Positions 1-32,129 are shown, counted from the first letter of the stretch. The stretch: 64,000 bases of DNA from an uncultured Sorangium sp. (GCA_966250485.1 CBINHN010000004.1:99726-163725); one strand, 5' to 3'. Program-made: numbers and translations. Notes: generated by a model not told the origin, from the sequence alone.

Positions 1-900
1 CTCCTCCAGCAGCTCGTCCACCTGTCCGCTGTGTGACGCAACGTCCACCTTCACCAATCGGCAAAATATCCCCTCCTCCTCCAATCGTCCCTTCAGCTCC
101 TGTATCGCTTCACTCTCGCCCGATACCACCGTCGATCGCCGGCTGTTCGAGACTCCAATCGACACCGCTCCACCGTACTCCTTCAACCGCTCGCACAGCT
201 CCTCCGTCGTCTGCTCCACCACCGCCATGCTCCCTCGACCGCTCACTCGCTTCAGCAAGCGGCTCCTCACGCAGATCACTCGCGCACCATCCTCCAAACT
301 CAACTTCCCGCTCACCACTGCAGCCGCCACTTCCCCCATGCTGTGGCCAACTACACCTTCCGGCTCCACTCCATAGCTCCGCCAAACCTCCGTCAGGCTC
401 ACTCCCAGACCGAACAACACCGGCTGGATGACGTCGATACCCTCCCACTTCCCTCTCCTCAGCTCCTCACTCAGCGACCACTCCACGTACGGCCTAAACG
501 CCGCTTCACAACGCTCGATCGCCTCCCGAAATACTCCCTCTCTCTCGTACAACGTCCGCCCCATCCCGCCCCATTGCGACCCTTGTCCAGGGTACACGAA
601 CACCAACTTCCCGCTCTCCCCACTCTCCTCTCCTGCTCCTCCCTCTCGCCAACTCACTAGCTTCCCAAGCAGCTCCTCCCCCCTAAAGCCTACTACCGCC
701 TTCCGCTTCTCGTGCTGCGTCCGCCGTCGCGCCGACGTGTAACATACGTCCCTCACCTCTCGCTCGCTCAACCCTCCCCTCAACAGCTCCTCATAACACT
801 TCCCTAGCTCTCGCAGCGCTCCCTCGCTACGACCAGACATCAACAAGATCTGCGCTCTCCCTATCCGATCCTCTCCCTCAACACTCTCCTCAGGCGCCTC
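1..900. repeat. Copy A of a 900-bp or longer near-perfect direct repeat (KS-AT linker plus AT domain); partner 5529-6428
   Basis: The offset is 5528. Four pairs of track ORFs give identical translations (33..431 = 5561..5959; 110..448 = 5638..5976; 343..660 = 5871..6188; 428..742 = 5956..6270). By eye I found one mismatch (about 856 t vs 6384 a, Arg vs Ser). Identity stops at 900/6428. The left end is cut by the window edge. Confidence 0.93.
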
Positions 901-2283
901 TTCGACGACGACGTGGGCGTTGGTGCCGCTCAAGCCAAACGAGCTCAGGGCCGCCATCCGCGGCGCGTCGCCTGCCGGCCAAGGCACGAGCTCCGTCGGG
1001 AGGAAGAAGCGCGAGCCCTCCAGCGTGATGCGCGGATTCACCTGACGCAGATGTAGATTCGGCGGGATCGCTCCGTGGCGCAGCGCTAACAAGATCTTGA
1101 TGAGCCCAGCCATGCCAGCCGCCGACTCGAGGTGGCCAACGTTCGTCTTCACCGAGCCGAGCGCGCAGCGCGCAACGGCGTCGCTGCTACCGTAGACCTC
1201 CGAGAGCGCGGAGAACTCGATGGGATCGCCCAGCGGTGTGCCCGTGCCGTGTGTCTCGATGAACGATACGCGCGCTGGCGAAACGCCCGCGGCCGTGAGC
1301 GCCTGACGCAACACCGCCTGCTGCGCGAGCGCGTTCGGCGCCGTCAAACCGTTGGAGCGACCGTCCTGGTTCACGGCCGAGCCGCGGATCACGCCCCAGA
1401 TTGGATCTCCGTCCCGCTGCGCGTCCGAGAGACGCTTCAAAATGACGACGCCGCAGCCTTCGCCACGAACGAAGCCGTTCGCCTGCGCGTCGAAGCTCTT
1501 GCAGCGGCCGTCGGGCGCCAGCGCGTAGAGCTTGGAGATCACCAGGCTCGTCAGCGGGGAAATGATGGCGTTGGTACCCGCGGCGATCGCCAGCGTGCTC
1601 TCGCCGCGCCGCAAGCTCGCGCACGCGAGATGCAGCGCAACGAGCGACGAGGAACACACCGTGTCCACGACCATCGCGGGACCCTGCAGGTCCAACCAAT
1701 ACGCGATCCGCCCAGCCGCCAGGCTGTTGCTGTTGCCGGTGCAGGCGTACGCATCGGCGCTAGCCACGTCCGAGAACTGCAGCGCCGCGTAGTCTCCGTT
1801 GTAGATGCCGACGAACACCCCAACGGGCTTACCGGCGAGCTCGTACGGCCGCTGCCCCGCGTTCTCCAGGGCCTCCCAGGTAACCTCGAGCAGCAAGCGT
1901 TGTTGGGGATCCATCGCGCTCGCCTCGCGCGGTGAGATATTGAAAAAAGCCGCGTCGAAGCGATCGATGCCGTCGATGAATCCGCCCCAACGCGCGCTGG
2001 CGGCCACAGGATTGGCCGGATCGAGCCGGGCAAGGAGCTCCGGCTCCCAGCGCTCCTTCGGAGCTTCTCGAATGGCGTCGCGACCCTCCCGCAGCAGCTG
2101 CCAAAACGCGTCGGTATCCGGCGCCCCGGGAAAGCGGCAGCTCACGCCGACGACGGCGATCGGCTCGTTCCCGGCTTGCTCTAGGGCGCGCAGCTGTCCC
2201 TTCAGAGTTTGAATCGCGACAAGCGCGCGCTTGATGGGCGACAACTCGTCGTCGTGGGCGGGAGTGTTGGTCGGCGTTTCCAT
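1..2283 (-). CDS. Type I modular polyketide synthase, 5' part only (N-terminal docking helix, KS, KS-AT linker, start of AT); continues beyond the left edge
   Basis: Absent from the ORF track because it has no stop in the window. The ATG at 2283..2281 overlaps the TGA of the upstream PKS (TGATG). My reverse translation reads [61 protein letters not shown]. The KS active site is [15 protein letters not shown] (about nt 1640-1690). The frame appears open to nt 1 (761 codons). Nt 1-900 are in frame and near-identical to the linker plus AT of the next gene (5529-6428), including GHSMGE and VDVASHS. Confidence 0.9.
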
Positions 2284-5200
2284 CAGGCCAGCCCGTCCAC
2301 CGCCGCCAACTCGCGAAGCAGCAACGCCTCGGCGTCGGTCTCGGAGATGCCGCGCACGTCCACGCGCTCCGCCGCGCTCGAGGTAGGCGTGGCGATGGGC
2401 GCGCTGGGCTCAGCTTGGCGTGGCTCGAAATCCAGCTTGCCCAGCAGGTAGCTCGCCAGGTTGACGACGTTCGAGTAGCTCCACACGAGGATTGCGGGCA
2501 GGCTGAGGCCGAGCGAGCCCTCGAGGCGGTTTCGGATTTCGAGCCCCATCAGCGAATCCAGGCCGAGCGAGGAGAAGGGCGTCTTGCGGTCCAGGCGCGC
2601 GGCGTCGAGCCGCAACACCTCAGCGATTTGCCGGCGCAGATACGCTTCGAGCAGCGCCGGGCGTTGTTCGGGGTTCGCGGCTGCGAGCTGGCGCCGGAGC
2701 TCGCCGGCGCGCTCGCTGGACCGCGGCTTCGGCTTGCTCGCGTCCATGGCGCTCAGGAGCGGCGTGCGCGAAGCGCTCAAAAAGAATTCGCGCCACTGGC
2801 GCACATCGAGCGGCAGCACGGCGATCTGATGCTCGCTGCGACGAAGCAGGCGCCCGAAGACTTCGAGCGCCTGCGCGGGAGGCAGGCTTCGTACGCCCCG
2901 ATTGCCGAAGCGTTCGCCGGGTCCGCGGGTCGCGGCGCGGCCCACTTCGGACCACGGTCCCCAATTGACGCTCACGGCAGGCAAGCCAAGGTTACGGCGA
3001 TACGCCGCGAAAGAGTCGAGAAACGCGCTCGCAGCAGCGTAGTTGGCCTGCCCGGGCGAGCCGAGGACCGATACGGCAGACGAGAACAGCACGAAGAAGT
3101 CGAGCGGCAGCTCAGCCGTAAGCTCGTGCAGATTCCACGTGCCGCGCAGCTTGGCGCGGAACACGTGTTCGAAGCGGGCAGCGGTTTGCTGCAATAGAAT
3201 GCCGTCATCGAGCGACACCGCGGCGTGGACGACTCCGCGCAGCGGCGGCAAATCACGGGCGATTTCGGCGAGCGCGCCGCGGAGAGCTTCCGCGTCGCCG
3301 ACGTCGGCGCGCACGACGCGCACGCCGGGGATCTCCGCCAGCGCGGCGCGCGCCGCTGGCGACGGTTCGCCGCGTCCGAGCAGCACGAGGTGCTGTGCAC
3401 CGTTCTCATTCATCCAGCGCGCGAGCGTGAGCCCGAGGCCGCCGAGCCCACCGGTGATGAGGTACGTCGCGTCGGCGCGGAACGAGGCTCGCGGCGTCTG
3501 GCGGTCGCTGACCGGCGCGGGTACGAGGCGCGCTACCCATCGCCTCGAGCCGCGCAGCGCGACTTGGTCCTCCTCCGTGGCAGCCGAGAGTTCCGCGAAC
3601 AGCGCGGCGCGCTCCTGCTCGTCGGGGACGCGGCTCGTGTCGACACGCGTCACCTGGAATTCGGGGTGCTCGTGCAGCAGAGAGCGACAGAATCCCCAGA
3701 GCGGAGCGGACTCGATGGCGGGCGGCTCCGCGGCGTTCAGCGCTTGCGCACCGCACGTTACTACGATGAGGCGCGGTGGGTTTCGCAGCGCGAGTCGCGT
3801 CAGCGCTTGGACCAGGAACAGCAACGCGAGCACGCCTCGAGATTGGGCCCGCTCGACCGCTTCGAGCGTCAGCGACTCGGCGTTGCGCGCGCCCCACGCA
3901 AACACGATTGTGCTGCACGGCGCGTGTTGATCGGCAAAGACGCGCGCCAGGCACTCACCGTACTGCCGAGGATCTTCGGGATCGATGGTGAAGTGAGCGG
4001 GGTCTAGGATTTGGAAGCGGGATCCAGGGCTGACGATGCACGGCGCTGGACCGGCGCTGCCGAGCTCTTCGGCGAGCGCTGGAGCGAGCAGGTCGTCGGC
4101 GAAGAGCAGCCAGCGCCCGGGGCTCGGCGCGCTCGCCGCGCGAGGCCTCGGTCGCTCTTGCCACTCGAAGCGGTAAAGCCAGCTATCCAGCTCGTCACGC
4201 ACTCCGGGCAACGTACCGGCGCTCAGCCGCTTCAACGCCAGCCCTTGCACCTCCGCCATCACCTCGCCGGCGTCGTCCAGCAGTCGTACCGTCCCTTGCA
4301 CCACCTCGCCTTCGCTCACCGCCATTCGCACGTGCGCCCAGCACGACCCTCCTGCCGCCCGCGCAGCAATCACCTTCTCCACTTGCGCCGGCAGGCGCAG
4401 CTCGCCGCTGCTCTCCTGCTCCAGCGCCGCTCCTATTACTTGAAAGCTTGCGTCCAGAAGCGCTGGGTGCAGCACGTAGCGCTCCGCTGCGCCGGCCGCC
4501 TCCGGCAGCTGCACCCGGCCGAGCGCCTCGCGCTCTCCTCGATACAGCTCCTGCAGCCCGCGAAAGCTCACGCCGTACTCCAACCCCTGCTGCGACAGCC
4601 GCTCGTAATACTCTTCGACGTCCAGCGCCTCGGCGCAGCGCGCTCGCACCGCCGATAGCGGCTCGGCGCTCTCAGGCTGCGCCGCGCTCAGCTTCAGCTC
4701 GCCCTTCGCGTGCACGCTCCAGCTTCGCGCTTCACCCGCCTCTCGGCTCGCGACGCTGAAGCTCCCAGCGCTCTCGCTACGCCGCGTCACCACCACTTGC
4801 ACGCGCCGCCGCTCTCCTTCTTTCAGCACCAGCGCTTGCTCGAAGCTCACCTCGGCCAGCTCCACTGCTTCGCCGAATACTTCCCGTCCTGCCGCCAAAC
4901 CCAGCTCCAGGTACCCCGCTCCGGGCACCACCACCATGCCCTGCACTCGGTGATCCGAAAGGTACCTCACGCTCCCCGCGCTCAGCTCCCGCTCGAAAAA
5001 ACACGTCCCTTCCAGCGATGACTCCAGCTTCCCTCCCAATAACGGGTGCCCGCTCGCTGCTACGCCTGCTCCGCCCGCCGACTCCCAAGGCTTGCTCTCC
5101 GTCTCTACCCAGTACCGCTCGCGCTGAAACGGGTACCGCGGCAGCTCCACCACTCGCCCGCCACCGTAAACTCTCTCCCACTTTATCTCTCGCCCGGCTT

Positions 5201-7805
5201 CATACAGCGCTCCCAGACCCTCCAAAATCGTACTCTCCTCCTCCGCTTCTCGTCTCATCGACGCGACCACCACTGCTTTGCCACCTCGTTCCCTGATCAC
5301 CTCCTCGATCGCTCCCTGCAATATCGGGTGCCCGCTCACCTCCACGTAGCTCCCATATCCACCTTCCCACAGCCGCTCCACCGTCTGACCGAACATCACA
5401 GGCTCTCGAAGGTTTCTCACCCAGTACTTCCCTCCCAGCTCCTCTCCTCTCAACTCCCTCCCTTCTACCGTCGAGTAAAACGGCACCTGACCCGCTCTCC
5501 CTTCCACCCCCTTCAGCTCCGCTGCCAGCTCCTCCAGCAGCTCGTCCACCTGTCCGCTGTGTGACGCAACGTCCACCTTCACCAATCGGCAAAATATCCC
5601 CTCCTCCTCCAATCGTCCCTTCAGCTCCTGTATCGCTTCACTCTCGCCCGATACCACCGTCGATCGCCGGCTGTTCGAGACTCCAATCGACACCGCTCCA
5701 CCGTACTCCTTCAACCGCTCGCACAGCTCCTCCGTCGTCTGCTCCACCACCGCCATGCTCCCTCGACCGCTCACTCGCTTCAGCAAGCGGCTCCTCACGC
5801 AGATCACTCGCGCACCATCCTCCAAACTCAACTTCCCGCTCACCACTGCAGCCGCCACTTCCCCCATGCTGTGGCCAACTACACCTTCCGGCTCCACTCC
5901 ATAGCTCCGCCAAACCTCCGTCAGGCTCACTCCCAGACCGAACAACACCGGCTGGATGACGTCGATACCCTCCCACTTCCCTCTCCTCAGCTCCTCACTC
6001 AGCGACCACTCCACGTACGGCCTAAACGCCGCTTCACAACGCTCGATCGCCTCCCGAAATACTCCCTCTCTCTCGTACAACGTCCGCCCCATCCCGCCCC
6101 ATTGCGACCCTTGTCCAGGGTACACGAACACCAACTTCCCGCTCTCCCCACTCTCCTCTCCTGCTCCTCCCTCTCGCCAACTCACTAGCTTCCCAAGCAG
6201 CTCCTCCCCCCTAAAGCCTACTACCGCCTTCCGCTTCTCGTGCTGCGTCCGCCGTCGCGCCGACGTGTAACATACGTCCCTCACCTCTCGCTCGCTCAAC
6301 CCTCCCCTCAACAGCTCCTCATAACACTTCCCTAGCTCTCGCAGCGCTCCCTCGCTACGACCAGACATCAACAAGATCTGCGCACTCCCTATCCGATCCT
6401 CTCCCTCAACACTCTCCTCAGGCGCCTCCTGCAGGATCGCGTGGCCATTCGTCCCGCCCATCCCGAACGAGCTCACCGCCGCCAGCAAGGGTTGATCGCG
6501 AGGCTGCCAGTCTTCTGCGCTCGTCGGGATCGAGAACGGGACGCCACCTAGGCTGATATTGGGGTTGAGCTCGCGAAAATGCAGGTGGGGCGGGATCACA
6601 CGGTGGCGCAGCGCGAGCGCGACCTTCATCACGCCCGCGATGCCCGCTGCGGCCTCCAGGTGACCGACGTTCGTCTTCACCGAACCGAGCGCGCAGCGCT
6701 GCTCCGGGGTACGGCCGCGACCGTACTGATCGACCAGCGCCTCGACCTCGATGGGATCGCCCAACGAGGTGCCCGTGCCATGAGCTTCGATGTACGAGAT
6801 CTGCGACGGCGCGACGTGCGCGCGCTCGATCGCCTGCCGTATCACGGCCTTCTGCGCCAAGACATTGGGCGCGGACAGGCCGTTGGAGCGGCCGTCTTGG
6901 TTGACGGCCGAGCCGCGGATCACCGCCCAGATTGGATCGCCGTCCCGCCGCGCGTCCGACAGCCGCTTCAAAACGACGACGCCGCAGCCCTCACTCCGGA
7001 CGTATCCGTCCGCCCGCGCGTCGAAGGTCTTGCAGCGCCCGTCGGGCGCCATCAGGCGTGATTTGCAGACCGCGACCATCGGCTGCGGCATTAGAATGAC
7101 GTTCACGCCGCCGGCCAGCGCTGCGTCGCACTCGCCCGCGCGCAAACTCTGACAGGCGAGGTGCAACGCGACCATCGACGACGAGCACGCGGTGTCCACG
7201 GCGAGGCTCGGGCCGCGTAGATCGAGCAGGTAAGAGAGCCGGTTCGCCACGATGCTGAACGCGCTGCCGGCGGTGGCGTAGACGTCGATTTTTTCGAGAT
7301 CTCCCAGCTGAAACCAAGCGTAGTCGCTGGTGCAGATGCCGACGAACACACCCGTGCGGCTGCCCGCCAGTCGCTCCGGCGGAAGCCCAGCGTTCTCGAG
7401 CGCGTGCCAGCTGACCTCGAGCAGCAAGCGTTGTTGCGGATCCATCGCGCTGGCCTCGCGCGGCGACACGCCGAAGAACGTCGCGTCGAAACGATCGATG
7501 TGATCCAAGAAGCCGCCCCAACGCGTGTACGTCTTGCCGGGCGCTTCGGGGTCCGGATCGAAGAGCGCCGCGGAATCCCAACGATCGCGCGGGATCTCGC
7601 CGATCGCGTCACGTCCGTCGCGGAGTGCCGCCCAGAACTCCTCTGGACCGTTGATGTTGCCGGGAAAGCGGCAGCCCATCCCGACGATAGCGATCGGCTC
7701 GGACTGCTGCCGCCTCAGCGCTTCGAGCTGGCTGTTGAGATCGAGAGCGAGCAACGCGACCCGCTTGGGCGGCAGCTTCGTTACCTGTTCGAGAAATGAT
7801 TCCAT
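2283..7805 (-). CDS. Type I PKS, one module: KS-AT-DH-KR-ACP
   Basis: Track ORF 2283..7940. I trimmed the start to the ATG at 7805 ([30 protein letters not shown]), because the upstream PKS ORF ends at 7813. Motifs: [27 protein letters not shown]; AT GHSMGE plus VDVASHS; [35 protein letters not shown]; [23 protein letters not shown]; [13 protein letters not shown]. Approximate nt spans: KS 6426-7697, AT 5166-6131, DH 4206-5051, KR 2946-3473, ACP 2436-2678. Confidence 0.95.
5529..6428. repeat. Copy B of the near-perfect linker plus AT repeat; partner 1-900
   Basis: Evidence as for copy A. The boundary at 6428 is the first base of the codon for Glu505 in [14 protein letters not shown], the last residues of the KS. 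Confidence 0.93.
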
Positions 7806-7812
7806 CAAAGGA

Positions 7813-10800
7813 TCAACCCTTCTGCCCGAAGTTCGCGAGAAAGAGCTGCTCGACCTGCTCGTCGCTGAGCTCGTTGATTCGCGCCAACGCCGCGTCAGCG
7901 CCCGCGGCCACCTCCACAGCGCTGGTCGCGGGCGCGTCATCCAGCACCGCTGCGACCTCCAAACCCAGCTTTTCCAGCAGGTGGCGAGCGAGCGCCGTCA
8001 CCGTCGGATGAGCCCACACCAGAGTTGCAGGCAAGCTGAGCGCCAGCCCGACCTCCAGGCGATTTCTAAGCTCCAGGGCCATTAGCGAGTCCAGCCCCAG
8101 CGTGTTGAACGGCGCGCTATTCGCGATGCGTGCCTCCGGCAAGCGCAGCACGCGCGCGAGCTCCTCGCGCAAGTAGCCCTCCAGCGCTGCGACGCGCTCC
8201 GTGGCCGCGCTGCTGCGTAGTCGATTGCGGACCTGCCCCTCGGATTCGGCGAGGCTGCCCCCCGCGACGTCGGCCAATAGAACTCGCAGAAAGGGCGTCT
8301 TGGCGAGCTTGGGAAAGAACTGACACCACTGCCGCGTATCGAAGGCCATGATGGCGAGGCCAGAACGCTCGCTGGCCAGCGCTCGCTCGAGCGCCGCGAG
8401 GCCCTGCGCCGCGCTCAGCGCCGCGAGTCCACGCGCCGCGAAGCGCTCGCTGCGGCTAGCATCAGCGACCAAACCAGTGTCCGAGAAGGGCCCCCAATTG
8501 ACGCTGAGCGCGGGCAATGCGCGCGCTCGGCGCTGCGCGGCCAGCGCATCGAGAAACGCGTTGGCTGCGGCGTAGTTGGCCTGCCCTGCCGAACCCAGCA
8601 GCGCAGCAGCGGAAGAGTACAGCACGAAAAAATCGAGCGGCGCTGCGCGCGTGACGCGAGCCAAGACGAAGGCGCCATTGAGCTTGGCGGTGTTGACCTT
8701 CTGAAAATGAGCGCGGCTCTGCTTGAGCAGCGTTGCGTCCGCGAGCACGCCCGCGGCGTGAATCACGCCGCGCAGTGAGCGACCGCTGTCTGCCAAGCCC
8801 CGTACCACGCGCGTGAGCTCCGGCTCCGACGCGACGTCGAAGCATTCGACGTCGACCCGAGCGCCTTCCGCTCTCAAGCTGGCGATGGCGGACTCCGCGC
8901 TGGCAGATGGCTGCCTGCGTCCGACCAGAACCAGGTGGCGAGCGCCGCGCCGCACCAGCCAGCGCGCGGCCGCCAAACCGAGCCCGCCCAGACCGCCCGT
9001 GATGAGGTAGCTCGCCTCCGAGGACAAGGCGGAGGCCGTCGATGGCCGCCGCAGGCGTGCCTCTGGATCGCGCACGTTCAGCACGATCTTTCCGATGTGC
9101 TGAGCGTTGGCCATGAACCGAAACGCGTCGCTGACACGGGAGATCGGGAAGCTCGTGGTGGGGAGCGGCTCGAAGCTCTCCTCCTCGAACAACGAGACTA
9201 CCTCGCGGAGCAACGCGCCCGCCGCGGCCGGCCGCTCCGCGGTGAGCGTCGCGATGTCGATGGCGACGTAAGACAGTCCACGCTTGAACGGCGCGAGGGG
9301 CAGCCGCGAGTTCTCGAAGATCTCCTTCTTTCCGATCTCGAGGAAGCGCCCGAACGGCGCGAGCAGCTCCAGGCTCTTGATCATCGCCGTATCCGTGAGC
9401 GCGTTCAACACGACGTCGACGCCCTGACCTGCGCTGTCGCGCAGCGTCTGCGCGACGAAATCGAGAGAGCGCGAATCCATGACGTGGCGCACGCCGAGCG
9501 CGCGCAGGTATTCACGCTTCTGCTCGGAGCCGGCGGTTGCAAAGACCTCCGCGCCCACGCGCTGCGCTAGGCGCAGCGCCGCGAGCCCAGTGCCGCCCGC
9601 GGCGGAGTGGATCAGGACGCGCTCTCCGGCGCCGAGACGCCCGGCTTGGCACAGCGCGGCGTACGCTGTCATGAAGCAGCCGGCCACACCGGCAGCCTGT
9701 TCCCACGTCAGCCGCGCTGGCTTGCGCACGACCAGCTCGCTGGACGTGATCACGTGGGAGGCGAAGGCGTGCTCCGCGACCGCGATGACCTCGTCGCCCA
9801 GGGCCAGCCCGCGCACTCCGTCTCCGAGGCGGACCACGCGTCCCGAACACTCGAACCCCAGCGGCAAACGATCGCCGCCGCCGGGTCGGAGTCCCATCGC
9901 CGACAGCACGTCCAGGAAGTTCAATCCGGCATACGCGACTTCAATCTCCACCTCTCCAGCCGCGAGACTCCGGGTTTCCGAGGGCGTGAGCTGCAGCCGC
10001 TCGAGCAAGCCCGGCTTGTCGATTTCCAAGCGAAAGCGATGCCCCAGAGCCGCTGTGGTCTCTACGCCGTCCTCCAGCTCGGCGCGCGTGAGCCGCGCCA
10101 CTCGGCGCTCACCGCGTCGCAGGGCAACTTGATCGTCGGCGCCGTCGGCGCAGAGCTCCTCGACCAGGGCGCTGACGTCGCGCGCATCGAGCGTGCCGTC
10201 CTCCACCGCTCCCAGATCGCAGCACGAGCAGCGAAACTCCGGGTGCTCTTGCACGATGACGCGAGCAAGTCCCCAAAGCGGCGCCTGCGCGAGCCCGCCA
10301 ACGCCATCGCCGTCCACGACGCCCATGGCGTCTTGCGTGCAAAGCCAGATCCGCGGCGGGTTGCGCAGTCCGGCCTTGGCCAAGGCCTGCACCATGTGAA
10401 CCACACCGACGCTCCCCACGTCCTGCGCTCGCTCGAGCCCTGGACAATCGAGAGCATCCCCGCGCGGCGCATCCACGCTGGCACAGTGCAGAACGACGCG
10501 CAGCGGCCCGAACGACTGAACGTCCTGCAGCAGCCGACGATGATGTTCCGGATTGAGCGGATCGATCTCGAACTGCCCTGGCTCGATTTGGCGATAATTC
10601 TCCCCGGCCCAGGCCAACACGGGCGACCCGCCGCGAGCCTCTAGCGTGCGCGCCAGACCCCGCGCCAGGCCGCGCCTGTCGGCCAGGAGCAACCAAGCAC
10701 CTTCGATGCCGCCGCTCGCCGGCGAAGCGCTGCCTGCTTCGGAGCGCTGCGCCTGGAGCATCGAAAGCGGCTCCGCCTGCCACGCCCGCTCGAACAGCCA

Positions 10801-13800
10801 ACGGGAGATCGTGTCCGCAGCCTTGGCGCGCTCCAAACGATCGGCACGCAGCTCCCTGGCTTCCAGCAGGAGCTCCCCGTCGTCGTTCATCAGGCGGAGG
10901 TCGACGAGCACCGAACCTTCGCGCGGCGCTCCGACGCGCTCCGCGAGCGCCCAGAGCCGACGATCGCGCTCGGGCGCGAACGGTCGCACGATGCGCAGAC
11001 GACCCACCTCTGTCGGCAAAAACGTGTCGTCTGCGCGCGCTTCGGGGCCGGCGAACAAACCGCCCAGGGCCTGGAACGCGGCGTCGGCGAGCGCCGGGTG
11101 CAGGCGGTACCCAGCGCGCTCCGGGATTCCCGCGGGCACGTGAATTTCCGCGAGCGCCGCGGGTTCGCTACGCCACAGCGAGTGAATGCCTTGGAAAGCG
11201 GGACCGTAGCTTAGACCTTGGCCGACCAGCGCGGCGTAGTACTCTGCGCCGGAGACCACCTCGGCGAAGGCCTCGCTCGGCGGGCGACGCATCGGCTCGG
11301 GGACGGCATCCGGGTCCGCTTCGGCCAGTAGCAACGTACCTTCCGCGTGCAGCGTCCAGCTCGGCGCGCTCTGCGCAGCGGTTTCGCGGCTGAAGAATCG
11401 GACGCTGGCGCGGCCCGCGCCCGCGCTCTCCAACACGAGCTCCAGAGTCCGACTCGTGGCGTCGTCCAACACCAGGGCGCGCCGAAAGGAGAACGAGTGA
11501 ATAGCGTGCACGCCCGCGCCGAACACGTCTTCCGCGGCAGCGAGCGCCATCTCGAGATAAGCGGTGGCCGGGAGCAGCGCCAGGCCCTGCACGCGGTGGT
11601 CATTCAGATAGGGAAAGCTTGCCAGGCTGAGCTCGGACTTCCACAGCACCGTGCCTGGCTGAGCGGCGTGATCCACGCGAATCCCGAGCAACGGATGGCC
11701 GCTGAAGGTGGCGTTATCGACGCTGGCCGCCGACGGAGCAGCGCGTCCGCCTTCTACCCAATGGCGCTCGCGCTGCCACGGATAGCGCGGCAGCGGCAGC
11801 AGGTCTCCGGGCGGATGAAGCTTTTCCCAGGCGATCGTGCGACCGCGCACGTAAAGCTCGGCGAGCACCGTCAGCACGGCTCTCGTCTGCGCCTCGCCGC
11901 GGCGCAGCGACGCTAGGACATGCCCGGAACGCCCGGCACGCCGCAGGCCGTCTTCGAGCGCGGGCGCGAGCACCGGATGCGGAGCGAGCTCGAGGAACAG
12001 CTCGTGCTCGCTCTCGAGCAAGCGCTCGACGGCGAGTGAAAAGAGCACCGGTTCGTTGAGGTGCTTGACCCAGTACTCGCTCGTCAGCTCGCTGCCCTCG
12101 CAGCGACCGCCGAGCACGCTCGAGTACAACGGCAACGTCGCGGGTCGCGGCCGCAGCTCGGCCAGCTCGCCCGCGAGCCGTGCGGCGACCTCGCGCATCT
12201 GCGGGCTGTGCGACGCCACGTTCGCCACGCCCCAACCGCAGAACACGCCTTTTTCGCTGAGCTCGTCGAGCAACGCCTCGAGGCTCGCCGGATCACCCGA
12301 CAATACTGTCGAACGCGGGCCGTTGCTGACGGCGATGAACACGCGATCGGCGCGGGATTGGATCGCCTCGCGCGCCTGCGCGAGCGACAGCTCGACGACT
12401 GCCATGGCACCCTCGCCGCTCGCCCCCGCCAGCAGCGCCGATCGCCGGCAAACCAGCCGTGCGCCCTCCGCGCGCGTCAGCGCACCCGCGAAGCACGCCG
12501 CCGCGATCTCTCCCATACTATGACCCACCACGGCATCGGGTTCGACGCCCAAGCTACGCAGATACTCGGCCACGGAGAGCTGCAACGCGAACAGCACGGG
12601 TTGGAAGATCTCGATGCGCTCGAGCCAGTCCGCGTCGGAGCGATGAATCATGTCGAGCAGCGACCAGCTGACGTGCGGGGCGATGGCCTGCGCGCAGGCT
12701 TCGAACGTGCCGCGAAAGAGCGGCTCGTCGAGCAGCTCACGGCCCATGCCGAGCCATTGGGACCCGTGCGGTGAGAACACGAACACCAACTTCGGACGCG
12801 CCGCTGCGTTCAGCGCGCCGCTGAGTATGCCCGGACGGCCTTGACCGCCCGCGTACTGCTCGAGCTCATGAGCGAGCTCCGCCGCGCTCGAGCCGATGAC
12901 GACGAGGCGCTGATCGTGGTGACTGCGCCGCACGCTCGCGCTGTAACAAAAGTCGCGTAAGGAGACGCCGGACGACAGCGCTGCAGCGTAAGCGCCGGCC
13001 AAGCTCTTCAGCGCCGCCTGCGTGTGGGCAGAGAGCGGCAGTAGATGAGTCGAGCCGGACGACTCCGTCGGATCGCGCTCCGGCTCACGCGACGGCTCGA
13101 GCATCGCCTCGAGCACCGCGTGGGCATTGGTGCCGCCGAAGCCGAACGAGCTGACGCCGGCGATTCGCCGGCCCGCGATGGGAGACCACGCCGTGAGCTC
13201 GGTCGGAACACGGAGCGGGAGCTGATCCCACGCGATGAAGGGGCTCGGCTGCTCGAAATGGAGGTGGGCAGGCAGCGCGCCGTGCTGCAGCGCCAGGGCG
13301 GTCTTGATCACGCTGGCGACGCCCGCAGCAGCCTCTAGGTGCCCCAGGTTCGTCTTCACGGATCCCAGCCAGAACGGCTGATCCGCGGGGCGGCCTTGCG
13401 CGAGCACGCGCCCGAGCGCCCCGACTTCGATGGGATCACCGAGCGCTGTGCCCGTGCCGTGCGCCTCGACGTAACCGACGAGCCCGGGCTCTACGCGCGC
13501 GTTGGCGAGCGCCTGGCGAATCACGGCCTCCTGAGCGACGCCGTTCGGCGCGGTGAGCCCGTTCGAGCGCCCGTCGTGGTTGGTCGCGGAGCCGCGCACC
13601 AAGCAGTAAATCTTGTCACGATCGCGCTGCGCGTCACTGAGGCGCTTCAGCACGAGCACGCCGCAGCCTTCCCCGCGCGCATAGCCGTCGGCGCGCGCGT
13701 CGAACGTCTTGCAGCGACCGTCGGGAGCCAGCGCCTTCACGGTCGAGAAGTAGACGAACGACTCGGGGCTGAGGATCAGGTTTACGCCCGCGACGATGGC

Positions 13801-14487
13801 CAGCGCGCACTCCTGACTGCGCAAGCTCTGGCAGGCGAGGTGGAGCGCAACCAGCGAGGACGAGCACGCCGTATCGATCGCGATCGATGGCCCCTGCAGG
13901 CCCAGGACGTACGACAGACGACCGGCCGCGACGCTCGCGGCGGTCCCCGTGCCGAAGTAGGCATCCATCTCTTTCGGGTCGTTCGGCAAGAGCTCGAGGT
14001 AGTCATTCGAGCTCATGCCGACGAACACTCCGCTCGCGCTGCCGCCGAGCTGATCCTTGCGTATCCCCGCGTCCTCCAGCGCTTCCCAGGTGACTTCCAG
14101 CAGCAGGCGTTGCTGCGGATCCAGACTCTGCGCCTCGCGCGGGGCGATACCGAAAAACTCCGCGTCGAACTGCGACACATCGCCCAAGAAGCCGCCGCGC
14201 TCCGTGTAGGTCTTACCGGGCGTGCCCGGGCTGGCGTCGTAGAAGGCGGCGCTGTCCCAACGACCCGCCGGGACATCCGCGGTGGCGTCGACCCCAGCGC
14301 ACAGCAGGCGCCAGAAGGCCTCGGGGTCCGTCGCGCCGCCCGGGAAACGGCAGCTCATCCCGACGAGGGCGAGCGGCTCGGCGTCGCGGCCGCGCAGCGC
14401 GTCGAGCTGGGCGCGCAGCTCCTTCAGCGCCAGGACGGAGCGCTGCAGCGGCGAAAGGTCCTGAAGTTCTCGTGAAGGCTCGGTCAT
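7813..14487 (-). CDS. Type I PKS, one fully reducing module: KS-AT-DH-ER-KR-ACP
   Basis: Track ORF 7813..14673. I trimmed the start to the ATG at 14487 (MTEPSRELQDLSPLQRSVLALKELRAQLDAL), because the upstream PKS ends at 14531. Motifs: [27 protein letters not shown]; AT GHSMGE plus ANVASHS, with an atypical FSPHGSQW in place of PGQGSQW; DH HPLLGIRV, LNDHRVQGLALLPATAY, LSYGPAF, HPALADAAFQ; ER LIHSAAGGTGLAALRLAQ; [13 protein letters not shown] with LAD in place of LDD; ACP LGLDSLMALE. Approximate nt spans: KS 13108-14379, AT 11824-12792, DH 10819-11700, ER 9076-10041, KR 8479-9012, ACP 7969-8196. Confidence 0.95.
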   Translation of the reverse strand: MTEPSRELQDLSPLQRSVLALKELRAQLDALRGRDAEPLALVGMSCRFPGGATDPEAFWRLLCAGVDATADVPAGRWDSAAFYDASPGTPGKTYTERGGFLGDVSQFDAEFFGIAPREAQSLDPQQRLLLEVTWEALEDAGIRKDQLGGSASGVFVGMSSNDYLELLPNDPKEMDAYFGTGTAASVAAGRLSYVLGLQGPSIAIDTACSSSLVALHLACQSLRSQECALAIVAGVNLILSPESFVYFSTVKALAPDGRCKTFDARADGYARGEGCGVLVLKRLSDAQRDRDKIYCLVRGSATNHDGRSNGLTAPNGVAQEAVIRQALANARVEPGLVGYVEAHGTGTALGDPIEVGALGRVLAQGRPADQPFWLGSVKTNLGHLEAAAGVASVIKTALALQHGALPAHLHFEQPSPFIAWDQLPLRVPTELTAWSPIAGRRIAGVSSFGFGGTNAHAVLEAMLEPSREPERDPTESSGSTHLLPLSAHTQAALKSLAGAYAAALSSGVSLRDFCYSASVRRSHHDQRLVVIGSSAAELAHELEQYAGGQGRPGILSGALNAAARPKLVFVFSPHGSQWLGMGRELLDEPLFRGTFEACAQAIAPHVSWSLLDMIHRSDADWLERIEIFQPVLFALQLSVAEYLRSLGVEPDAVVGHSMGEIAAACFAGALTRAEGARLVCRRSALLAGASGEGAMAVVELSLAQAREAIQSRADRVFIAVSNGPRSTVLSGDPASLEALLDELSEKGVFCGWGVANVASHSPQMREVAARLAGELAELRPRPATLPLYSSVLGGRCEGSELTSEYWVKHLNEPVLFSLAVERLLESEHELFLELAPHPVLAPALEDGLRRAGRSGHVLASLRRGEAQTRAVLTVLAELYVRGRTIAWEKLHPPGDLLPLPRYPWQRERHWVEGGRAAPSAASVDNATFSGHPLLGIRVDHAAQPGTVLWKSELSLASFPYLNDHRVQGLALLPATAYLEMALAAAEDVFGAGVHAIHSFSFRRALVLDDATSRTLELVLESAGAGRASVRFFSRETAAQSAPSWTLHAEGTLLLAEADPDAVPEPMRRPPSEAFAEVVSGAEYYAALVGQGLSYGPAFQGIHSLWRSEPAALAEIHVPAGIPERAGYRLHPALADAAFQALGGLFAGPEARADDTFLPTEVGRLRIVRPFAPERDRRLWALAERVGAPREGSVLVDLRLMNDDGELLLEARELRADRLERAKAADTISRWLFERAWQAEPLSMLQAQRSEAGSASPASGGIEGAWLLLADRRGLARGLARTLEARGGSPVLAWAGENYRQIEPGQFEIDPLNPEHHRRLLQDVQSFGPLRVVLHCASVDAPRGDALDCPGLERAQDVGSVGVVHMVQALAKAGLRNPPRIWLCTQDAMGVVDGDGVGGLAQAPLWGLARVIVQEHPEFRCSCCDLGAVEDGTLDARDVSALVEELCADGADDQVALRRGERRVARLTRAELEDGVETTAALGHRFRLEIDKPGLLERLQLTPSETRSLAAGEVEIEVAYAGLNFLDVLSAMGLRPGGGDRLPLGFECSGRVVRLGDGVRGLALGDEVIAVAEHAFASHVITSSELVVRKPARLTWEQAAGVAGCFMTAYAALCQAGRLGAGERVLIHSAAGGTGLAALRLAQRVGAEVFATAGSEQKREYLRALGVRHVMDSRSLDFVAQTLRDSAGQGVDVVLNALTDTAMIKSLELLAPFGRFLEIGKKEIFENSRLPLAPFKRGLSYVAIDIATLTAERPAAAGALLREVVSLFEEESFEPLPTTSFPISRVSDAFRFMANAQHIGKIVLNVRDPEARLRRPSTASALSSEASYLITGGLGGLGLAAARWLVRRGARHLVLVGRRQPSASAESAIASLRAEGARVDVECFDVASEPELTRVVRGLADSGRSLRGVIHAAGVLADATLLKQSRAHFQKVNTAKLNGAFVLARVTRAAPLDFFVLYSSAAALLGSAGQANYAAANAFLDALAAQRRARALPALSVNWGPFSDTGLVADASRSERFAARGLAALSAAQGLAALERALASERSGLAIMAFDTRQWCQFFPKLAKTPFLRVLLADVAGGSLAESEGQVRNRLRSSAATERVAALEGYLREELARVLRLPEARIANSAPFNTLGLDSLMALELRNRLEVGLALSLPATLVWAHPTVTALARHLLEKLGLEVAAVLDDAPATSAVEVAAGADAALARINELSDEQVEQLFLANFGQKG

Positions 14488-14530
14488 GGTTGGGCTCGCT
14501 TTATCGTCACCGCTTCGGCGAAGCGCATCA

Positions 14531-17500
14531 TCACGTGCCGCGCGCGAGACGCGCGATCTCTTCGTCGACGGCCGCGCCGAGCTCTTGCTCGGAGAGCCGT
14601 GTAATCTCGGCGAGCGAGATGCCTGACACCACCGCTGGCGCCGAGGCCGGCGCCGAGGTCGATGTCGGGCCATCGCACGCGAGCTGGTTCAGCAGGTAAT
14701 CGCTGACCTCCTCGATGCTCGGATAATTGAACAGCAACGCCGGTGGCAAGGCGCGCCCGACGCCGCGCGCGAGCGCCTTCGAGAGGCTCAGCGCCATCAA
14801 CGAGTCGAGGCCGAAGTTGCGCAGCGGCACACGCGGATCGAGCTGCCCTGCTTCGGCATGACCGAGCACCAGCGCGGACTGCTCTTGCACGAAGCGCCGC
14901 ACGATATCGCGACGCTCGGCGCCGCGCGCACTCTGCAAACGATCGAGCAAGAGCGATGACTCGTCTGCGGCTTCGCTGAGACGGGCGCGCGGCCACTCGC
15001 CGTGCAGGATCGCGACCTCAGGGCTCGGCTGCTCGGGGTCGAGAGCACCCGCGAGCGCGGCGAGCGCACTGTCTTTCTGCATCGCGCGCAGGCCGAGCGC
15101 CGAGAGCCGCTCGCCGTCGCGGGCGCTCAAGCGGGCGGTCATCCCGAGCTGCGCGAACGGGCCAAAATTCACGGACAACGCCGGCAAGCCGCGGGCTCGC
15201 CGTACGAACGCAAAGGCGTCGAGGAACGCGTTGGCTGCTGCGTAGTTGCTCTGCCCAACCGAGCCCAGGACGGACGCTATGGACGAGCACATGACGAAGA
15301 AATCGAGCGCTAGGCCCTCACTCTCCGCGTGCAGCCAGCGAGCGCCGAGGGCCTTCGCCGCAAATACCCGCTCGAACCGCTGCATCGTTTGCTGCGCGAT
15401 GACGCCGTCGTCGAGCGCGCCGGCGGCGTGCACGATGCCGCGCAGCGGCGGCAACTTCGACTTGAGGCTGAGCATCAGCGCGGCGACCTGGTCGCGCTGC
15501 GCGACATCAACGCTGAACGTCGAGATTTCTGCGCCGAGCGCGGACAACGCGCGGAGCTGCTCGCGTACCGCCGGGGAGGGCTCACTGCGCTGCACGAGCG
15601 CGATGTGCCGCGCACCTCGCTCCGCCAGCCAGCGCGCCAGCGCGATGCCCACGCCACCAAGGCCGCCCGTGATCAGATAGCCGCCATCGGCACGGATCAG
15701 AGCGCGTACCTCGGGCGCTTCCGCTTGGACGCGCTGCCACGTGAGCGACAGGCATTGGCCGCCGCGCAAGGCGAGCTCGCTCTGCGGCTGGCCGGCGAGC
15801 AGCACGCGCGCCAAGCGCGCCGCATCCACCGGCGAGCGGGGATCCAGGTCAATCAGGCCGCCCCACGAGTTCGGATATTCGAGCGCCGCGCTGCGCGCGA
15901 AGCCCCACAGCGGAGCCTGGGCCAACAGGCCAGCAGCGTCGCCGACGTCGCCCACCTCGAGCGCTTGTCCGCCTCGCGTTACGACCCAGAAGCGCGCGTC
16001 CGGCAACAGCTCGCTCGCGCAGCGAAACTGCGTCAGCAGCGTGGCAAGCTGCTGCCTGGCTCCGTCCTCCTCGTCCGTCGCATCCTCCGGCTCCGCTAGA
16101 TGAACGACGCCGCGCCAGGCTGCGGAGCGCGCCGCCGCCGTGGCTTCGCGCAGCCCCTCGCGCGCTTCGACTTCGTCGCTCGCGCTCAGCAACCAGGCGC
16201 GCTGGCCGCTAGCTTCCAGCGCCTGTACGAGGCTCCGGCCGAAGCCCGTAGCGCGAGCGCAGATCAACCAAGCGCCCGGCGCTGCAGCGGGTAGGCGTGG
16301 CTCTGCCGCGGGGCGCCAAACGGGTACGTAGCGCTGCGCCGCGCGCTCGACCGTCGCGAGCGTGCGCCGCACGCATAGGCCCTCCATGGCGATGACGAGC
16401 TCCCCCGCTTCGTCGCAGAGCTCGACGTCCCCGGTGAAGACCTCGCCAGCCTCGGCCGCGGAGGAGGACCGCAGCCGCGCACGGCACGTTCGCGGCGTGC
16501 CGCGGCCCGGATAAAAGCAAAAGCGCTCGATCCCGAGCGGCACGTACAGCGAATCCGCTTTCGCGAAGCGCTCCCATGCCACTCCGAACAGCTGAAAACA
16601 AGCATCGATGAGACCCGGGTGCAGCACGTAGCTTTCGGCGACGTCTCGCGCGCGTGGCGCGCGCACGACGCCAAGGGCCTCGCAGTCGCCTCGCGTCACT
16701 GAAGCGAGCCATTGAAAGCTCGGACCGAGCTCGTAGCCGCGCTCGCGCATGTCGGCGTAGAAGCTGTCGCCGCTCAGCGGCTGCGGCGCGTCGCCGCTCT
16801 GCGTCGAAAGCTGCCCCGCGGGAGCACGCGCCTCCGCCCGCTCGGCACGCGTCGCCTCCATGTGCGCGTACCACGGTGTATCGGCGTCGCTCGTCAGCGG
16901 CTGGCTGGCGATGAGCACCGTCGGTTCCTCGGCGACGCGGCGTTCTAGCGTTTGAACGACGTAAGCGTCCGTCCCCGTCAAGATCAGCGGCTCGCGAAAC
17001 ACGATATTTAGCAGCGCGCTCTGCTCACGCCCCGTGGCGCGCGCGGCGAGCAGCCACATCGCCAGGTACCCTGCGGCGGGGAAGATCACCTGGCCGCGCA
17101 GGACGTGCTCACGGATGGGTTCACTGCCGGCGCTGAGCTCCGATTCGAAGATGCAGTCTCCCGCTGCCGAACGTCGGCGTTCACCGAGCAGCGCGTGCTG
17201 GCGCTCCTTGGCGGGCGGTGTGCGCGCGGCTATCACCCGCGAGGTCCTGCGCCGCAGGCTCGTGCCCTGAAACGGATACGCCGGCAAGCTCACACGTCGG
17301 CGCTGACGTTCCGCGTCGATGCGGCTCCAATCGAGCTCTGCGCCGCGAACGAAGAGCGCGCCCAGGCTTTGAAACAGCTGACGGCAGTCGCTGTGCCCGC
17401 GCCGCAGCGACGGCAACCAATCCAGCCCTGCGCTGCCGAGCGCCCGTTGACCCAGGCTCGTCAGCACCGGCTGCGGACCGAGCTCGATGAATGCGTTGCA

Positions 17501-19955: not shown

Positions 19956-22900
19956 TCAGGCGTTCAGCAGCGCCGTGAGCGCATCTTGTTCCGAGAGGTT
20001 TGCGACCGACTCCAGCGCGCCACGAAGCGCAGCGGCATCTTCCAGCCGGGCTGCTTCCGCGCGCTCGGGCGGCGCCGTGCGCGGCGCTGTCGTCTCTGCA
20101 AGCTCCAGCCCCAGACGTCCCGCCAGGCTCGCGGCGAGCAGCGCTACGCTGGGGTGCGCCCAGACGAGCGTCGCCGGTAAAGTCAGCCCGAGGCTCGCCT
20201 CGATGCGATTGCGCAGCTCGAGCGCCATCAGCGAATCGAGCCCCAAGCTCGCGAACGGCGTGTCGCGCTCCACGCGGCCGCGCGCAAGGCGAAGCACCTG
20301 CGAGAGCTGAGCGATGAGGTGGCTCTCCAGTAACCCGCGGCGCGCCCCCGGCGCCGCCGCGCGCAGCGTCTTTTCGAACGCCGGCTCGACGACCGCCGCG
20401 CCCTCCGCCTGCTCCGGTAGCGCCGCGAAGATCGGGAGCTGCGCCGACTTCGGATAAAACTGCCGCCATTGTCGCAAGTTCAGCGGCAGCACGCCGAGCT
20501 GCGCAGCGCCGTGATCGAGCGCCCGCTCGAGAGCCTCTAAACCCTGCTCTGGAGTGATGCTGGCGAGCCCGCGATAGGCGAGCCGCTCGCCACGCCGCGC
20601 GCTGGCGGCGGCGAGGCCCACCTCGGCCCAGGGTCCCCAGTTGATGCTGAGCCCCGGTAGTCCCAGCCGCTGACGGTGATGAGCGAGCGCATCGAGAAAG
20701 GCGTTGGCTGCAGCATAGTTGGCCTGACCCGGTGAGCCCAATAGCGAGGCGCCCGATGAGAACAGGACGAACCAGTCGAGCGGGTCCTGCTGCGTCGCGA
20801 CGTGCAGGTTCCACGCGCCGTCGATTTTCGGGGTCATGACCTTGGAGAGCCGCTCCTCTCCTTGTTCCAGCAAAGTGGCGTCATCCAAAACCACGGCGCA
20901 GTGAAAGATGGCGCGCAGTGGCGGCAGCTCGCGACGAACGAGGCTCAGAGCGCGCTCGAGCTCGGCGCCGTTCGCTACGTCCACCATCAGCGTGCGCACG
21001 TCCGCTCCGCGCGCGCGCAGCGCTTCTACGCTGGCGCGCTGCTCGGCGTTCGGTTCGCGCCGGCCCAGCAACACTAGGCTGCGTGCTCCGCGCTCGACCA
21101 GCCAACCCGCTAGCGTGAGACCGAGCCCGCCCAGCCCGCCGCTCACGAGGTAGCTGCCGTCGGCGCACACCCGAACGCCGGCTTTGGCAGCAGCGAGCGA
21201 AGTGGTGCGGCGCTCGGCGAACGAGAGCACGACCTTTCCGATGTGCTTGGCTTGGGCCATGAAATGCAGCGCGTCCGCCGCTCGTTCGACGGGGAACACC
21301 CGTGTCGGCAGCGGCGCGAGTTGCGCCTCCGCGAGCCGACCGACGACCTCGCTCAACGCTTCGCGCAGCAGCGCGGGGCGCTCCCGCGCGACGGCCAAAA
21401 GGTCCACGAGCGTGAAGCTCAGGTTCCTGAGGAACGGGCGTAGACCGAGCGATCGATCTTCGTAGTAGTCGCGCTTGCCGATCTCGACGAACCGGCCATA
21501 GCTGCGCAATAGCGCGAGGCTCGCCGCGATGAACGGACCGGAGAGCGAGTTTAGTACAACGTCGACACCCTCGCCTCGACTCTCGGCCAAGACCTCGTCC
21601 GCGAAATCGAGCGAGCGCGAGCTCACGACGTGCGCCACGCCGCGTTCGCGTAAAAACGCTCGCTTCTCTTCGCTGCCCGCGCTCGCGAAAACTTCCGCGC
21701 CGATGATCTGCGCCAACGCCACGGCCGCTAGCCCCACGCCGCCAGTCGCAGCGTGAATCAGCACGCGCTCGCCCGCGGCTAGGCGCGCTACGCGATGCAA
21801 CGCATGATACGCGGTGGTGAAGGCGATCGGCACGCCGGCTGCCTCGAGCAGCGAGAGGCGCGCCGGCTTGCGCACCACGAGCTGGGCGCTGGCGATGACG
21901 TGCGTCGAGAACGCAGCCGGCGCGATGGCCATGACCTCGTCGCCCAGCGAGAGCTCGCTCACTCCGGCACCCAAAGCGACGATCCGGCCAGCGCACTCGC
22001 CGCCCAACGCGATCGGCTTCTGCTCGGACGGCCCCGACGGATCGGGGATCGCACCGAGCGCGACGAGCACGTCGACGAAGTTCAGGCCTGCGGCCTCGAC
22101 CTCGATCTCGACCTCCCCGGCAGCCGGTGACCGGCGTTCGATGGCCGAACAGACCAGGCCTTCCAGCGTGCCCGGTCGCTCCAGCGTCACGCGGAATGGT
22201 GCGTCGCCCGCGCTCGCGGGCGCGCGCGCCGGACGTTCCGCCGGGCGAGCCAGACGCGCCACGTAGCGGCGCTCATCGCGCAGCGCGACTTGGTCCTCGG
22301 GGCTCGACTCGAGCAGCTCGCGGCAGAGGGCGGAGAGCTCCCTCTGCGGCTCGGCGCTGAGATCGATACGTGCGCAAGCGAGCTCGGGATGCTCGAGCGC
22401 CACCGTTCGACCGAGACCCCACAATGGCGCCTGAGCGAGGGCAAGCGGCGCGGAGTCCGTAGCGATCGGCTGAGCGCCAGCTGTCACCAGCCACAGTCGA
22501 GGCGGCTCGGCGCTGTTGCGCACTAGCGCCTGAACCAACTGGACGGCGCTCCGCATCGCGCCGAGCTGCAGCCGCGTCGGTGCGGCGTCGGGCGCCAAGG
22601 CAGCGCCGAGATCGATGCTCGGCAGGTGAACGACACCGCGAAACGCGCGGCCCTGCACGACCCGGCGCAGCTCCGCCGCGTTATCGCTCGCGTCGCTGGC
22701 CGCGAGCTCGACACGAACCACTCGGGCGCCGTTGGACTCGAGCTGTTCCGCGAGCTGCGTGCCCAAGCCACCCCGATCCAGCAGCACGAGCCAGTCGCCG
22801 GCCGCGCTCTGCTCGGGGGCGCTCAGCTGCAGCGCCTGCGGCTGCCAAGCGAGCTCGTAGAACCAACCGCTCACCACGTCGCGCTGAGCCGTGGCTGCCG

Positions 22901-32128: not shown

Positions 32129-32129
32129 T

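Follow-up and report, generated by a model that had tools for sequence, protein, structure and literature searches.

GRINS are repeats in polyketide synthase (PKS) genes that are longer than 500 bp, share more than 80% identity and are commonest in acyltransferase (AT) domains; they undergo gene conversion and carry a nucleotide skew that is strongest at codon position 3 and shifts the amino-acid composition (Nivina et al. 2021, PMC8256042). Their definition adds a mean |GC skew| above 0.15 and a mean |TA skew| above 0.15 (PMC8256042). In most GRINS, GC skew and TA skew correlate positively, although anticorrelated cases exist, and this correlation is descriptive and lies outside the threshold definition (PMC8256042). 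Transition-type errors through tautomers, yielding G+T, have been proposed as the mechanism, and the GRINS of tylactone synthase show abrupt flips of skew sign (PMC8256042). Concerted evolution, or gene conversion, of AT domains has also been described for modular PKSs (reviewed in PMC8256042, its refs 6 and 7). Here we analyse a 64,000-nt stretch of DNA, hereafter the window, from an uncultured Sorangium sp. (GCA_966250485.1, CBINHN010000004.1:99726-163725), in which four strand-skewed islands coincide with two families of repeated AT cassettes. We consider it likely that these are GRINS-type elements, that is, domain-sized, strand-skewed cassettes in a cis-AT cluster of PKS and non-ribosomal peptide synthetase (NRPS) genes, recently gene-converted between modules.

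Skewed islands and repeated cassettes

The window is C4:99726-163725 in a 7.5-Mb genome of 150 contigs and 68% G+C, and its positions 1-45439 hold eight minus-strand PKS/NRPS open reading frames (ORFs), A to H. The closest named homologs of its pyruvate dehydrogenase E1 come from metagenome-assembled genomes of Polyangiaceae/Myxococcota (75-82% identity), which makes an uncultured, Polyangiaceae-like myxobacterium the most likely host. Island edges are the change-points of G versus C at maximum likelihood. In the four islands the plus-strand GC skew ranges from -0.42 to -0.52, and the remaining PKS genes have -0.035 to -0.038; relative to the genome-wide robust standard deviation (SD) of GC skew (0.050 in 600-nt windows), the islands lie 8-10 robust SD off the genome mean (z = -8 to -10), with a G+C content near the host level (0.61-0.67 vs 0.68). 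The base counts from which a preliminary description of this DNA had read an extreme excess of C over G at the AT cassettes are reproduced exactly: 25 C and 6 G at 5581-5640, 33 C and 6 G at 17821-17880, and, outside the cassettes, 21 C and 19 G at 7441-7500. The islands, with the likelihood-ratio test (LRT) values of their change-points, are as follows.

1-893, minus strand: skew island in the ORF A copy; change-point 893, G/(G+C) 0.24, GC skew -0.52
4179-6465, minus strand: skewed core of the ORF B copy; change-points with LRT 190
17502-18296, minus strand: skewed core of the ORF D copy; change-points with LRT 73, GC skew -0.43
35209-36000, minus strand: skewed core of the ORF G copy; change-points with LRT 71, GC skew -0.42

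Within the ORF B core, the linker and AT (5100-6465; skew -0.50) are more strongly skewed than the dehydratase (DH) part (4179-5099; skew -0.32). The whole genome has only about nine islands in which |skew| exceeds 0.3, the largest being these four. Of 21 AT domains located by tblastn, just four are skewed, with a coding-strand GC skew of +0.36 to +0.50 compared with -0.05 to +0.15 in the other 17. A skew common to AT domains throughout the genome, which the preliminary description had named as an outcome that would overturn its reading, is thus ruled out.

Two repeat families match the islands in position: family 1 in ORFs A and B, and family 2 in ORFs D and G.

3979-6428, minus strand: family-1 cassette, ORF B copy; part of the linker between ketosynthase (KS) and AT, the AT, the DH and, after it, an unskewed tail of about 200 nt
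-1549 to 900 in window numbering (contig C4:98176-100625), minus strand: family-1 cassette, ORF A copy; inside the window, KS-AT linker and AT
17324-18286, minus strand: family-2 cassette, ORF D copy; one malonyl-type AT (GHSVGE, HAFH), Pfam AT at aa 559-868
35031-35993, minus strand: family-2 cassette, ORF G copy; its AT has the same protein sequence as that of ORF D (100% identity)

The family-1 AT is VASH-type and methylmalonyl-like; in ORF B (2283-7940), Pfam places the AT at aa 604-907 and the DH at aa 965-1243. About 1,549 nt of the ORF A copy, comprising the rest of the AT and the DH, lie beyond the left edge of the window. Over 2,450 nt the A and B copies differ at two positions (4014 and 6384, with a perfect run at 4015-6383; 99.9% identity), of which only that at 6384 falls in the part where ORF A 1-900 aligns with ORF B 5529-6428. 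Beyond 6428, on the KS flank, the copies abruptly become about 70% identical (11-42 mismatches in every 100 nt), and the flank on the ketoreductase (KR) side is about 67% identical. The family-2 copies are 99.9% identical over 963 nt (about one mismatch), and megablast detects no further similarity between ORFs D and G outside the cassette. Such near-identical cassettes between diverged flanks point to gene conversion, as the preliminary description had proposed for their spread within the cluster. Recent, non-reciprocal copying between modules, of linker-AT-DH between A and B and of the malonyl AT between D and G, is well supported by this mosaic pattern of identity.

Skew and repeat end together on one side only. 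At the KS-proximal end the two limits lie 10-40 nt apart (6465/6428, 18296/18286 and 36000/35993), whereas at the distal end 180-200 nt are identical yet unskewed (3979-4179, 17324-17502 and 35031-35209), so that the conversion tracts reach past that core, and do so solely at its 3′ (gene-sense) end. The limits given earlier, 4190 and 6428, are close to our change-points at 4179 and 6465, but the second is not the end of the KS: the boundary at 6428-6465 lies inside the KS-AT linker, about 40-50 aa beyond the Pfam end of the KS. Catalytic motifs are intact, namely the AT motifs and the DH motifs HxxxGxxxxP and DxxxQ in B, and GHSVGE and HAFH in D; the cassettes therefore most likely continue to specify functional enzymes.

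Kilobase-long identical repeats are hard to assemble, the assembly has 150 contigs, and polishing can homogenise copies, which raises the question of whether the identity or the skew is an artefact. This is extremely improbable: each copy of either family sits in frame in a long, uninterrupted ORF that has complete Pfam domains and flanks of its own, about five assemblies contain the same proteins, and repeat collapse cannot create skew.

The cassettes belong to a cis-AT PKS-NRPS cluster primed with p-aminobenzoic acid (PABA), with a PABA-type starter cassette upstream of the PKS/NRPS ORFs.

1-2283, minus strand: ORF A, PKS/NRPS; continues past the left edge of the window
2283-7940, minus strand: ORF B, KS-AT-DH-KR-ACP module; KS, KR and acyl carrier protein (ACP) of normal composition
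7813-14673, minus strand: ORF C, PKS/NRPS
14531-19945, minus strand: ORF D, KS-AT-DH-KR-ACP; skew confined to the AT
19956-26579, minus strand: ORF E, PKS/NRPS
26576-32194, minus strand: ORF F, PKS/NRPS
32130-37592, minus strand: ORF G, KS-AT-DH-KR-ACP; skew confined to the AT
38396-45439, minus strand: ORF H, PKS/NRPS

Variants of the ORF B, D and G proteins that differ by 1-8 residues are encoded in about five public assemblies, on contigs of 120,885-221,832 bases; the cluster recurs in closely related strains or samples. Across five near-identical assemblies, ORFs D and G together have just 14 variable residues, none of them in the cassette (2.5 expected).

Elsewhere in the genome, the other islands near |GC skew| 0.3 are short and non-PKS (C6:75201-76000, C37:32901-33800, C64:10701-11300, C134:3401-4200 and C117:1-600). 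The genes at or next to those on C6, C37, C64 and C134 are an ORF of 690 aa with no Pfam match, a PIG-L deacetylase, a pair of VWA and Y-family-polymerase (IMS_C) genes, and an aminotransferase. The most purine-asymmetric 600-nt window of the genome is C21:62101-62700 (purine fraction 0.31); its GC skew is weak (-0.11), and A/T asymmetry is therefore behind its purine imbalance. A single-copy AT of another PKS cluster in the same genome (C79:16946-17893) has a mild coding-strand skew of +0.15, with G3 0.47 and C3 0.33, and could be an incipient or decaying skewed region.

A purine-directed bias on the coding strand

The islands differ from the rest of the PKS genes at all three codon positions and most at the third, where the fraction of G (G3) is 0.57-0.60 and that of C (C3) 0.15-0.20, compared with about 0.42 each elsewhere; the replacement of C-ending by G- and A-ending codons seen in the preliminary description thus holds. 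The pattern is clearest when four-fold degenerate sites are separated from two-fold codons ending in a pyrimidine (NNY) or a purine (NNR).

Four-fold sites, G: skewed ATs 0.64-0.66; unskewed ATs 0.44-0.48
Four-fold sites, C: skewed ATs 0.05-0.09; unskewed ATs 0.39-0.41
Four-fold sites, A: skewed ATs 0.13-0.19; unskewed ATs 0.05-0.06
Four-fold sites, T: skewed ATs 0.11-0.12; unskewed ATs 0.06-0.10
NNY codons, fraction C: skewed ATs 0.72-0.82; unskewed ATs 0.69-0.83
E/(D+E): skewed ATs 0.84-0.92; unskewed ATs 0.56-0.77
K/(N+K): skewed ATs 0.67-0.82; unskewed ATs 0.20-0.40

Individually, the ORF B AT has G 0.64, C 0.05, A 0.19 and T 0.12 at four-fold sites and the ORF D AT has G 0.66 and C 0.09, so that purines occupy about 0.80 of these sites in skewed ATs and 0.52 in unskewed ATs. 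Among glycine codons, GGC drops from 0.54 to 0.08-0.18 as GGG and GGA together rise from 0.27 to 0.65-0.76; CGC drops from 0.55 to 0.09-0.11, the share of CTC shrinks from 0.36 to 0.01-0.07, GTC and GCC collapse, and ACC and TCC go down to 0. In skewed ATs two-fold NNY codons are rarer, with a normal fraction of C, and NNR codons are commoner. The coding strand of the cassettes is 65-67% purine, compared with 50% elsewhere. The loss of four-fold C to G or A while NNY codons keep their C identifies a pressure for purine over pyrimidine on the coding strand, C giving way to G or A wherever the code allows, and neither C-to-T decay nor a keto/amino (G+T) bias. The skew is a nucleotide-level, strand-specific pressure whose effect peaks at synonymous four-fold sites and carries over into the protein.

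This spill-over raises Gly, Glu and Lys and lowers Ala, Pro, Asp and Leu. In skewed compared with unskewed ATs, Gly makes up 13-14% vs 5-8%, Glu 12-15% vs 6-10% and Lys about 3% vs 0.3-0.6% of residues; Thr, His and Arg are unchanged. Of the Glu/Gly/Arg richness claimed earlier, Glu and Gly stand, joined by Lys, and Arg does not, being about 9% inside and outside the cassettes. The enrichment in Gly, Glu and Lys might be read as selection for Glu/Gly/Lys-rich AT and DH surfaces, with codon bias as a secondary effect. We regard this as very improbable, because the largest shift is at synonymous four-fold sites (C 0.05-0.09 vs 0.40) and synonymous choice within Gly, Ala, Arg, Val, Leu and Thr shifts too, which selection on the protein cannot bring about.

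The same bias accounts for long shadow ORFs on the plus strand, where the pyrimidine-rich sequence is poor in stop trinucleotides (3.8-10.5 per kb in the islands vs 16.8 per kb in control PKS DNA). The two shadow ORFs opposite the D and G cassettes are real, as described before, and are rich in Pro, Ala, Ser and Arg (Thr 8%); that at 5046-5564 is instead rich in Leu, Arg, Pro and Ser.

Selection on the nucleic acid itself, through purine loading of mRNA or a G-rich non-template strand prone to R-loops or G-quadruplexes (G4), could in principle have maintained the skew as an aid to recombination or expression instead of as a mutational by-product. It would fit the purine content of the coding strand, the density of GGG runs (31-36 per kb on the coding strand vs 0-3 per kb on the template strand) and the retention of C in NNY codons, which agrees better with a purine preference than with decay of C. 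A single canonical G4 motif (four G3+ runs) is also present on the coding strand of every cassette copy, at the corresponding positions 559-582 and 6087-6110 in family 1 and 17787-17812 and 35494-35519 in family 2 (all minus strand), and there is none in about 37 kb of other PKS DNA. The number of G4 motifs, however, equals the codon-shuffle expectation (0.8-1.2 per cassette; P 0.58-0.72), and the longest polypurine runs in the cassettes do not exceed those in shuffles. The G4 motifs are thus probably a by-product of composition. Special structure-forming DNA was rejected on these grounds, bulk composition alone being demonstrable, and we consider selection on the nucleic acid unlikely.

Origin of the cassettes

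The preliminary description had attributed the cassettes to a foreign or different-lineage PKS whose codon usage was retained and which was then copied within the cluster. Their composition does depart sharply from that of the host and changes abruptly at domain edges. Among 5.8 billion proteins, however, the best non-self identity over the whole cassette is 49% for family 1 and 50% for family 2, and the AT of family 1 taken alone (B-type AT) reaches 57-58%. Family-1 matches come mostly from Myxococcus, Archangium, Sorangium and MxaF-type proteins, the nearest named relatives being myxobacterial PKSs. When the family-1 AT-DH protein is compared with its own genome and those of 30 relatives, the best match is the unskewed ORF E of the same cluster (44%), followed by ORF F (42%) and ORF C (41%), and the best foreign match is 42%; over the AT only, ORF E and the B-type AT are 53-57% identical. 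At the DNA level, a search of 400 genomes of the phylum returned only the cassettes' own copies, besides matches of about 120 nt at 73-78% over conserved motifs, and a peptide-pattern search of species-representative genomes found no close relative.

In a tree of 90 AT sequences the B-type AT has no resolved position within the methylmalonyl-type clade, and the AT of family 2 (D-type AT) falls in the malonyl clade, where its sister (SH-aLRT 94) is a metagenomic protein of unknown taxon with which it shares about 50% identity. The amino-acid composition of both ATs was flagged as aberrant. In such free trees neither cassette joins the cluster's own ATs with robust support, which, like the placement of the D-type AT, could favour a donor. 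An approximately unbiased (AU) test on a 26-row set, covering the B-type AT only, does not reject a clade of this AT with the cluster's own C, E and F ATs (p-AU 0.65), and the constrained tree has the higher likelihood. The searches thus give no closer homolog in another lineage than in the cluster itself, and for the B-type AT the phylogeny does not reject common origin with the cluster's own ATs but is compatible with paralogy within the cluster.

Skewed ATs in other organisms bear on the same point. The peptide-pattern search recovered classical G+T GRINS ATs in metagenome-assembled genomes of Solirubrobacterales, several of them duplicated within a contig (L018/L020/L043, L036/L037, L041/L042, L023 and L025), and so confirmed independently that such elements exist. 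On the coding strand their GC skew runs from +0.38 to +0.56 and their TA skew from +0.43 to +0.55, at a C3 of 0.05-0.17; the sets L041/L042, L036/L037 and L018/L020, for example, combine a TA skew of +0.48 to +0.55 with a C3 of 0.05-0.12 and have flanks with no skew or much less of it. In about 10 of 13 comparable skewed ATs, both flanks are clearly less skewed, which suggests that the skew belongs to the cassettes and not to the codon usage of a donor genome. The 3′ flanks of L025 and L043 are strongly skewed. These ATs are just 30-48% identical to the B-type AT and hence are not donors, and the coding-strand TA skew of the Sorangium cassettes, about -0.04 to -0.10, differs from theirs. We know of no genome with G3 of about 0.6 and C3 of about 0.1-0.2 throughout. 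On these comparisons a foreign donor is not supported, and we rate it as improbable, if somewhat less so than selection on the nucleic acid.

A probable variant of GRINS in a myxobacterium

Instead of imported codon usage, the skew would have arisen within the cassette lineage, through a strand-asymmetric, transversion-type (pyrimidine-to-purine, Y->R) process or through selection. Conversion would then homogenise the copies and thereby set extender-unit choice and dehydration in two module pairs at once; the predicted extender choice is malonyl in D and G and VASH-type in A and B.

We replicated the GRINS criteria in 150-nt windows with a step of 30. The repeats are 2,450 and 963 nt long (2,490 and 990 nt by the window scan) and 99.9% identical within the same PKS by exact alignment (0.99-1.00 by the window scan), and mean |GC skew| is 0.41 in family 1 and 0.37 in family 2 compared with a cluster background of 0.068. 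The third-position skew described above is accompanied by the amino-acid shift (Gly up, Pro and Ala down). As in GRINS, the repeats lie inside one cis-AT PKS cluster and are centred on the AT, although family 1 spans the DH too; they combine intense local GC skew with sharp mosaic boundaries that indicate conversion, and their catalytic motifs are kept.

Identical ATs in otherwise diverged modules of one assembly line are what concerted evolution of ATs in modular PKSs produces; ordinary conversion tracts, however, may be of usual composition, whereas each tract here is the most skewed DNA of its genome. Sharp change-points relative to the host genome recall horizontally acquired compositional islands, but the cassettes are sub-genic, in frame and bounded by domain edges, with an asymmetry of G versus C only and no donor found.

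Several observations weigh against assigning the cassettes to GRINS. Mean |TA skew| is 0.12 in family 1 and 0.09-0.10 in family 2, below the 0.15 threshold, so that the cassettes fall outside the formal definition, and the cluster background of 0.131 is above both families. GC and TA skews are anticorrelated inside the repeats (r = -0.25 to -0.66). GRINS are reported as rare in Proteobacteria (PMC8256042), and PKS DNA of three relatives, about 160 kb in total, contains no skew island above |0.25|, which gives no sign that such islands are frequent in PKS DNA of the lineage. The sister relationship of the D-type AT to the metagenomic protein counts in the same direction. The unskewed ATs of the genome have terminal branches of 0.32-0.85, a range that takes in those of the B-type AT (0.62) and the D-type AT (0.54); accelerated recoding in place is thus not demonstrated.

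In contrast to published GRINS, the bias of the cassettes is purine/pyrimidine (G, some A) and not keto/amino (G+T against C+A), it has one sign throughout without the abrupt flips of tylactone synthase, and its host is a Polyangiaceae-like myxobacterium, from a group in which GRINS are reported to be rare; no paper joining GRINS with myxobacteria was present in the literature searched. In contrast to the expectation of the transition/tautomer model, NNY codons keep their C and the four-fold change is from C to G or A. The cassettes are best read as a GC-only, purine-directed, myxobacterial variant of published GRINS, in which the general phenomenon is known and the codon-level signature is added. 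They might even represent a distinct purine-loading (R/Y) class of GRINS, produced by a coding-strand, C-to-G/A transversion-type process, or by selection for a G-rich non-template strand, and not by the transition/tautomer route; this further step is tentative and, on balance, doubtful. If such a class is real, at least two processes make skewed, conversion-prone PKS cassettes, one of them acting in Myxococcota.

The cassette ends are natural, tolerated recombination junctions that could serve in engineering this PABA-primed PKS-NRPS; they are situated in the KS-AT linker at a depth of about 45 aa, immediately upstream of the AT, and directly behind the DH or the AT. More generally, GRINS are considered to make polyketides diversify faster by exchanging AT specificity and reductive domains in several modules at a time, and the Sorangium cassettes are an example from outside Actinobacteria, in which the skew is purely G over C and purine-directed. 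Their NNY codons are untouched, which excludes cytosine deamination or transition-type errors as the cause here. A GRINS threshold that asks for both skews misses such elements, and their frequency in myxobacterial and other clusters may therefore be underestimated.

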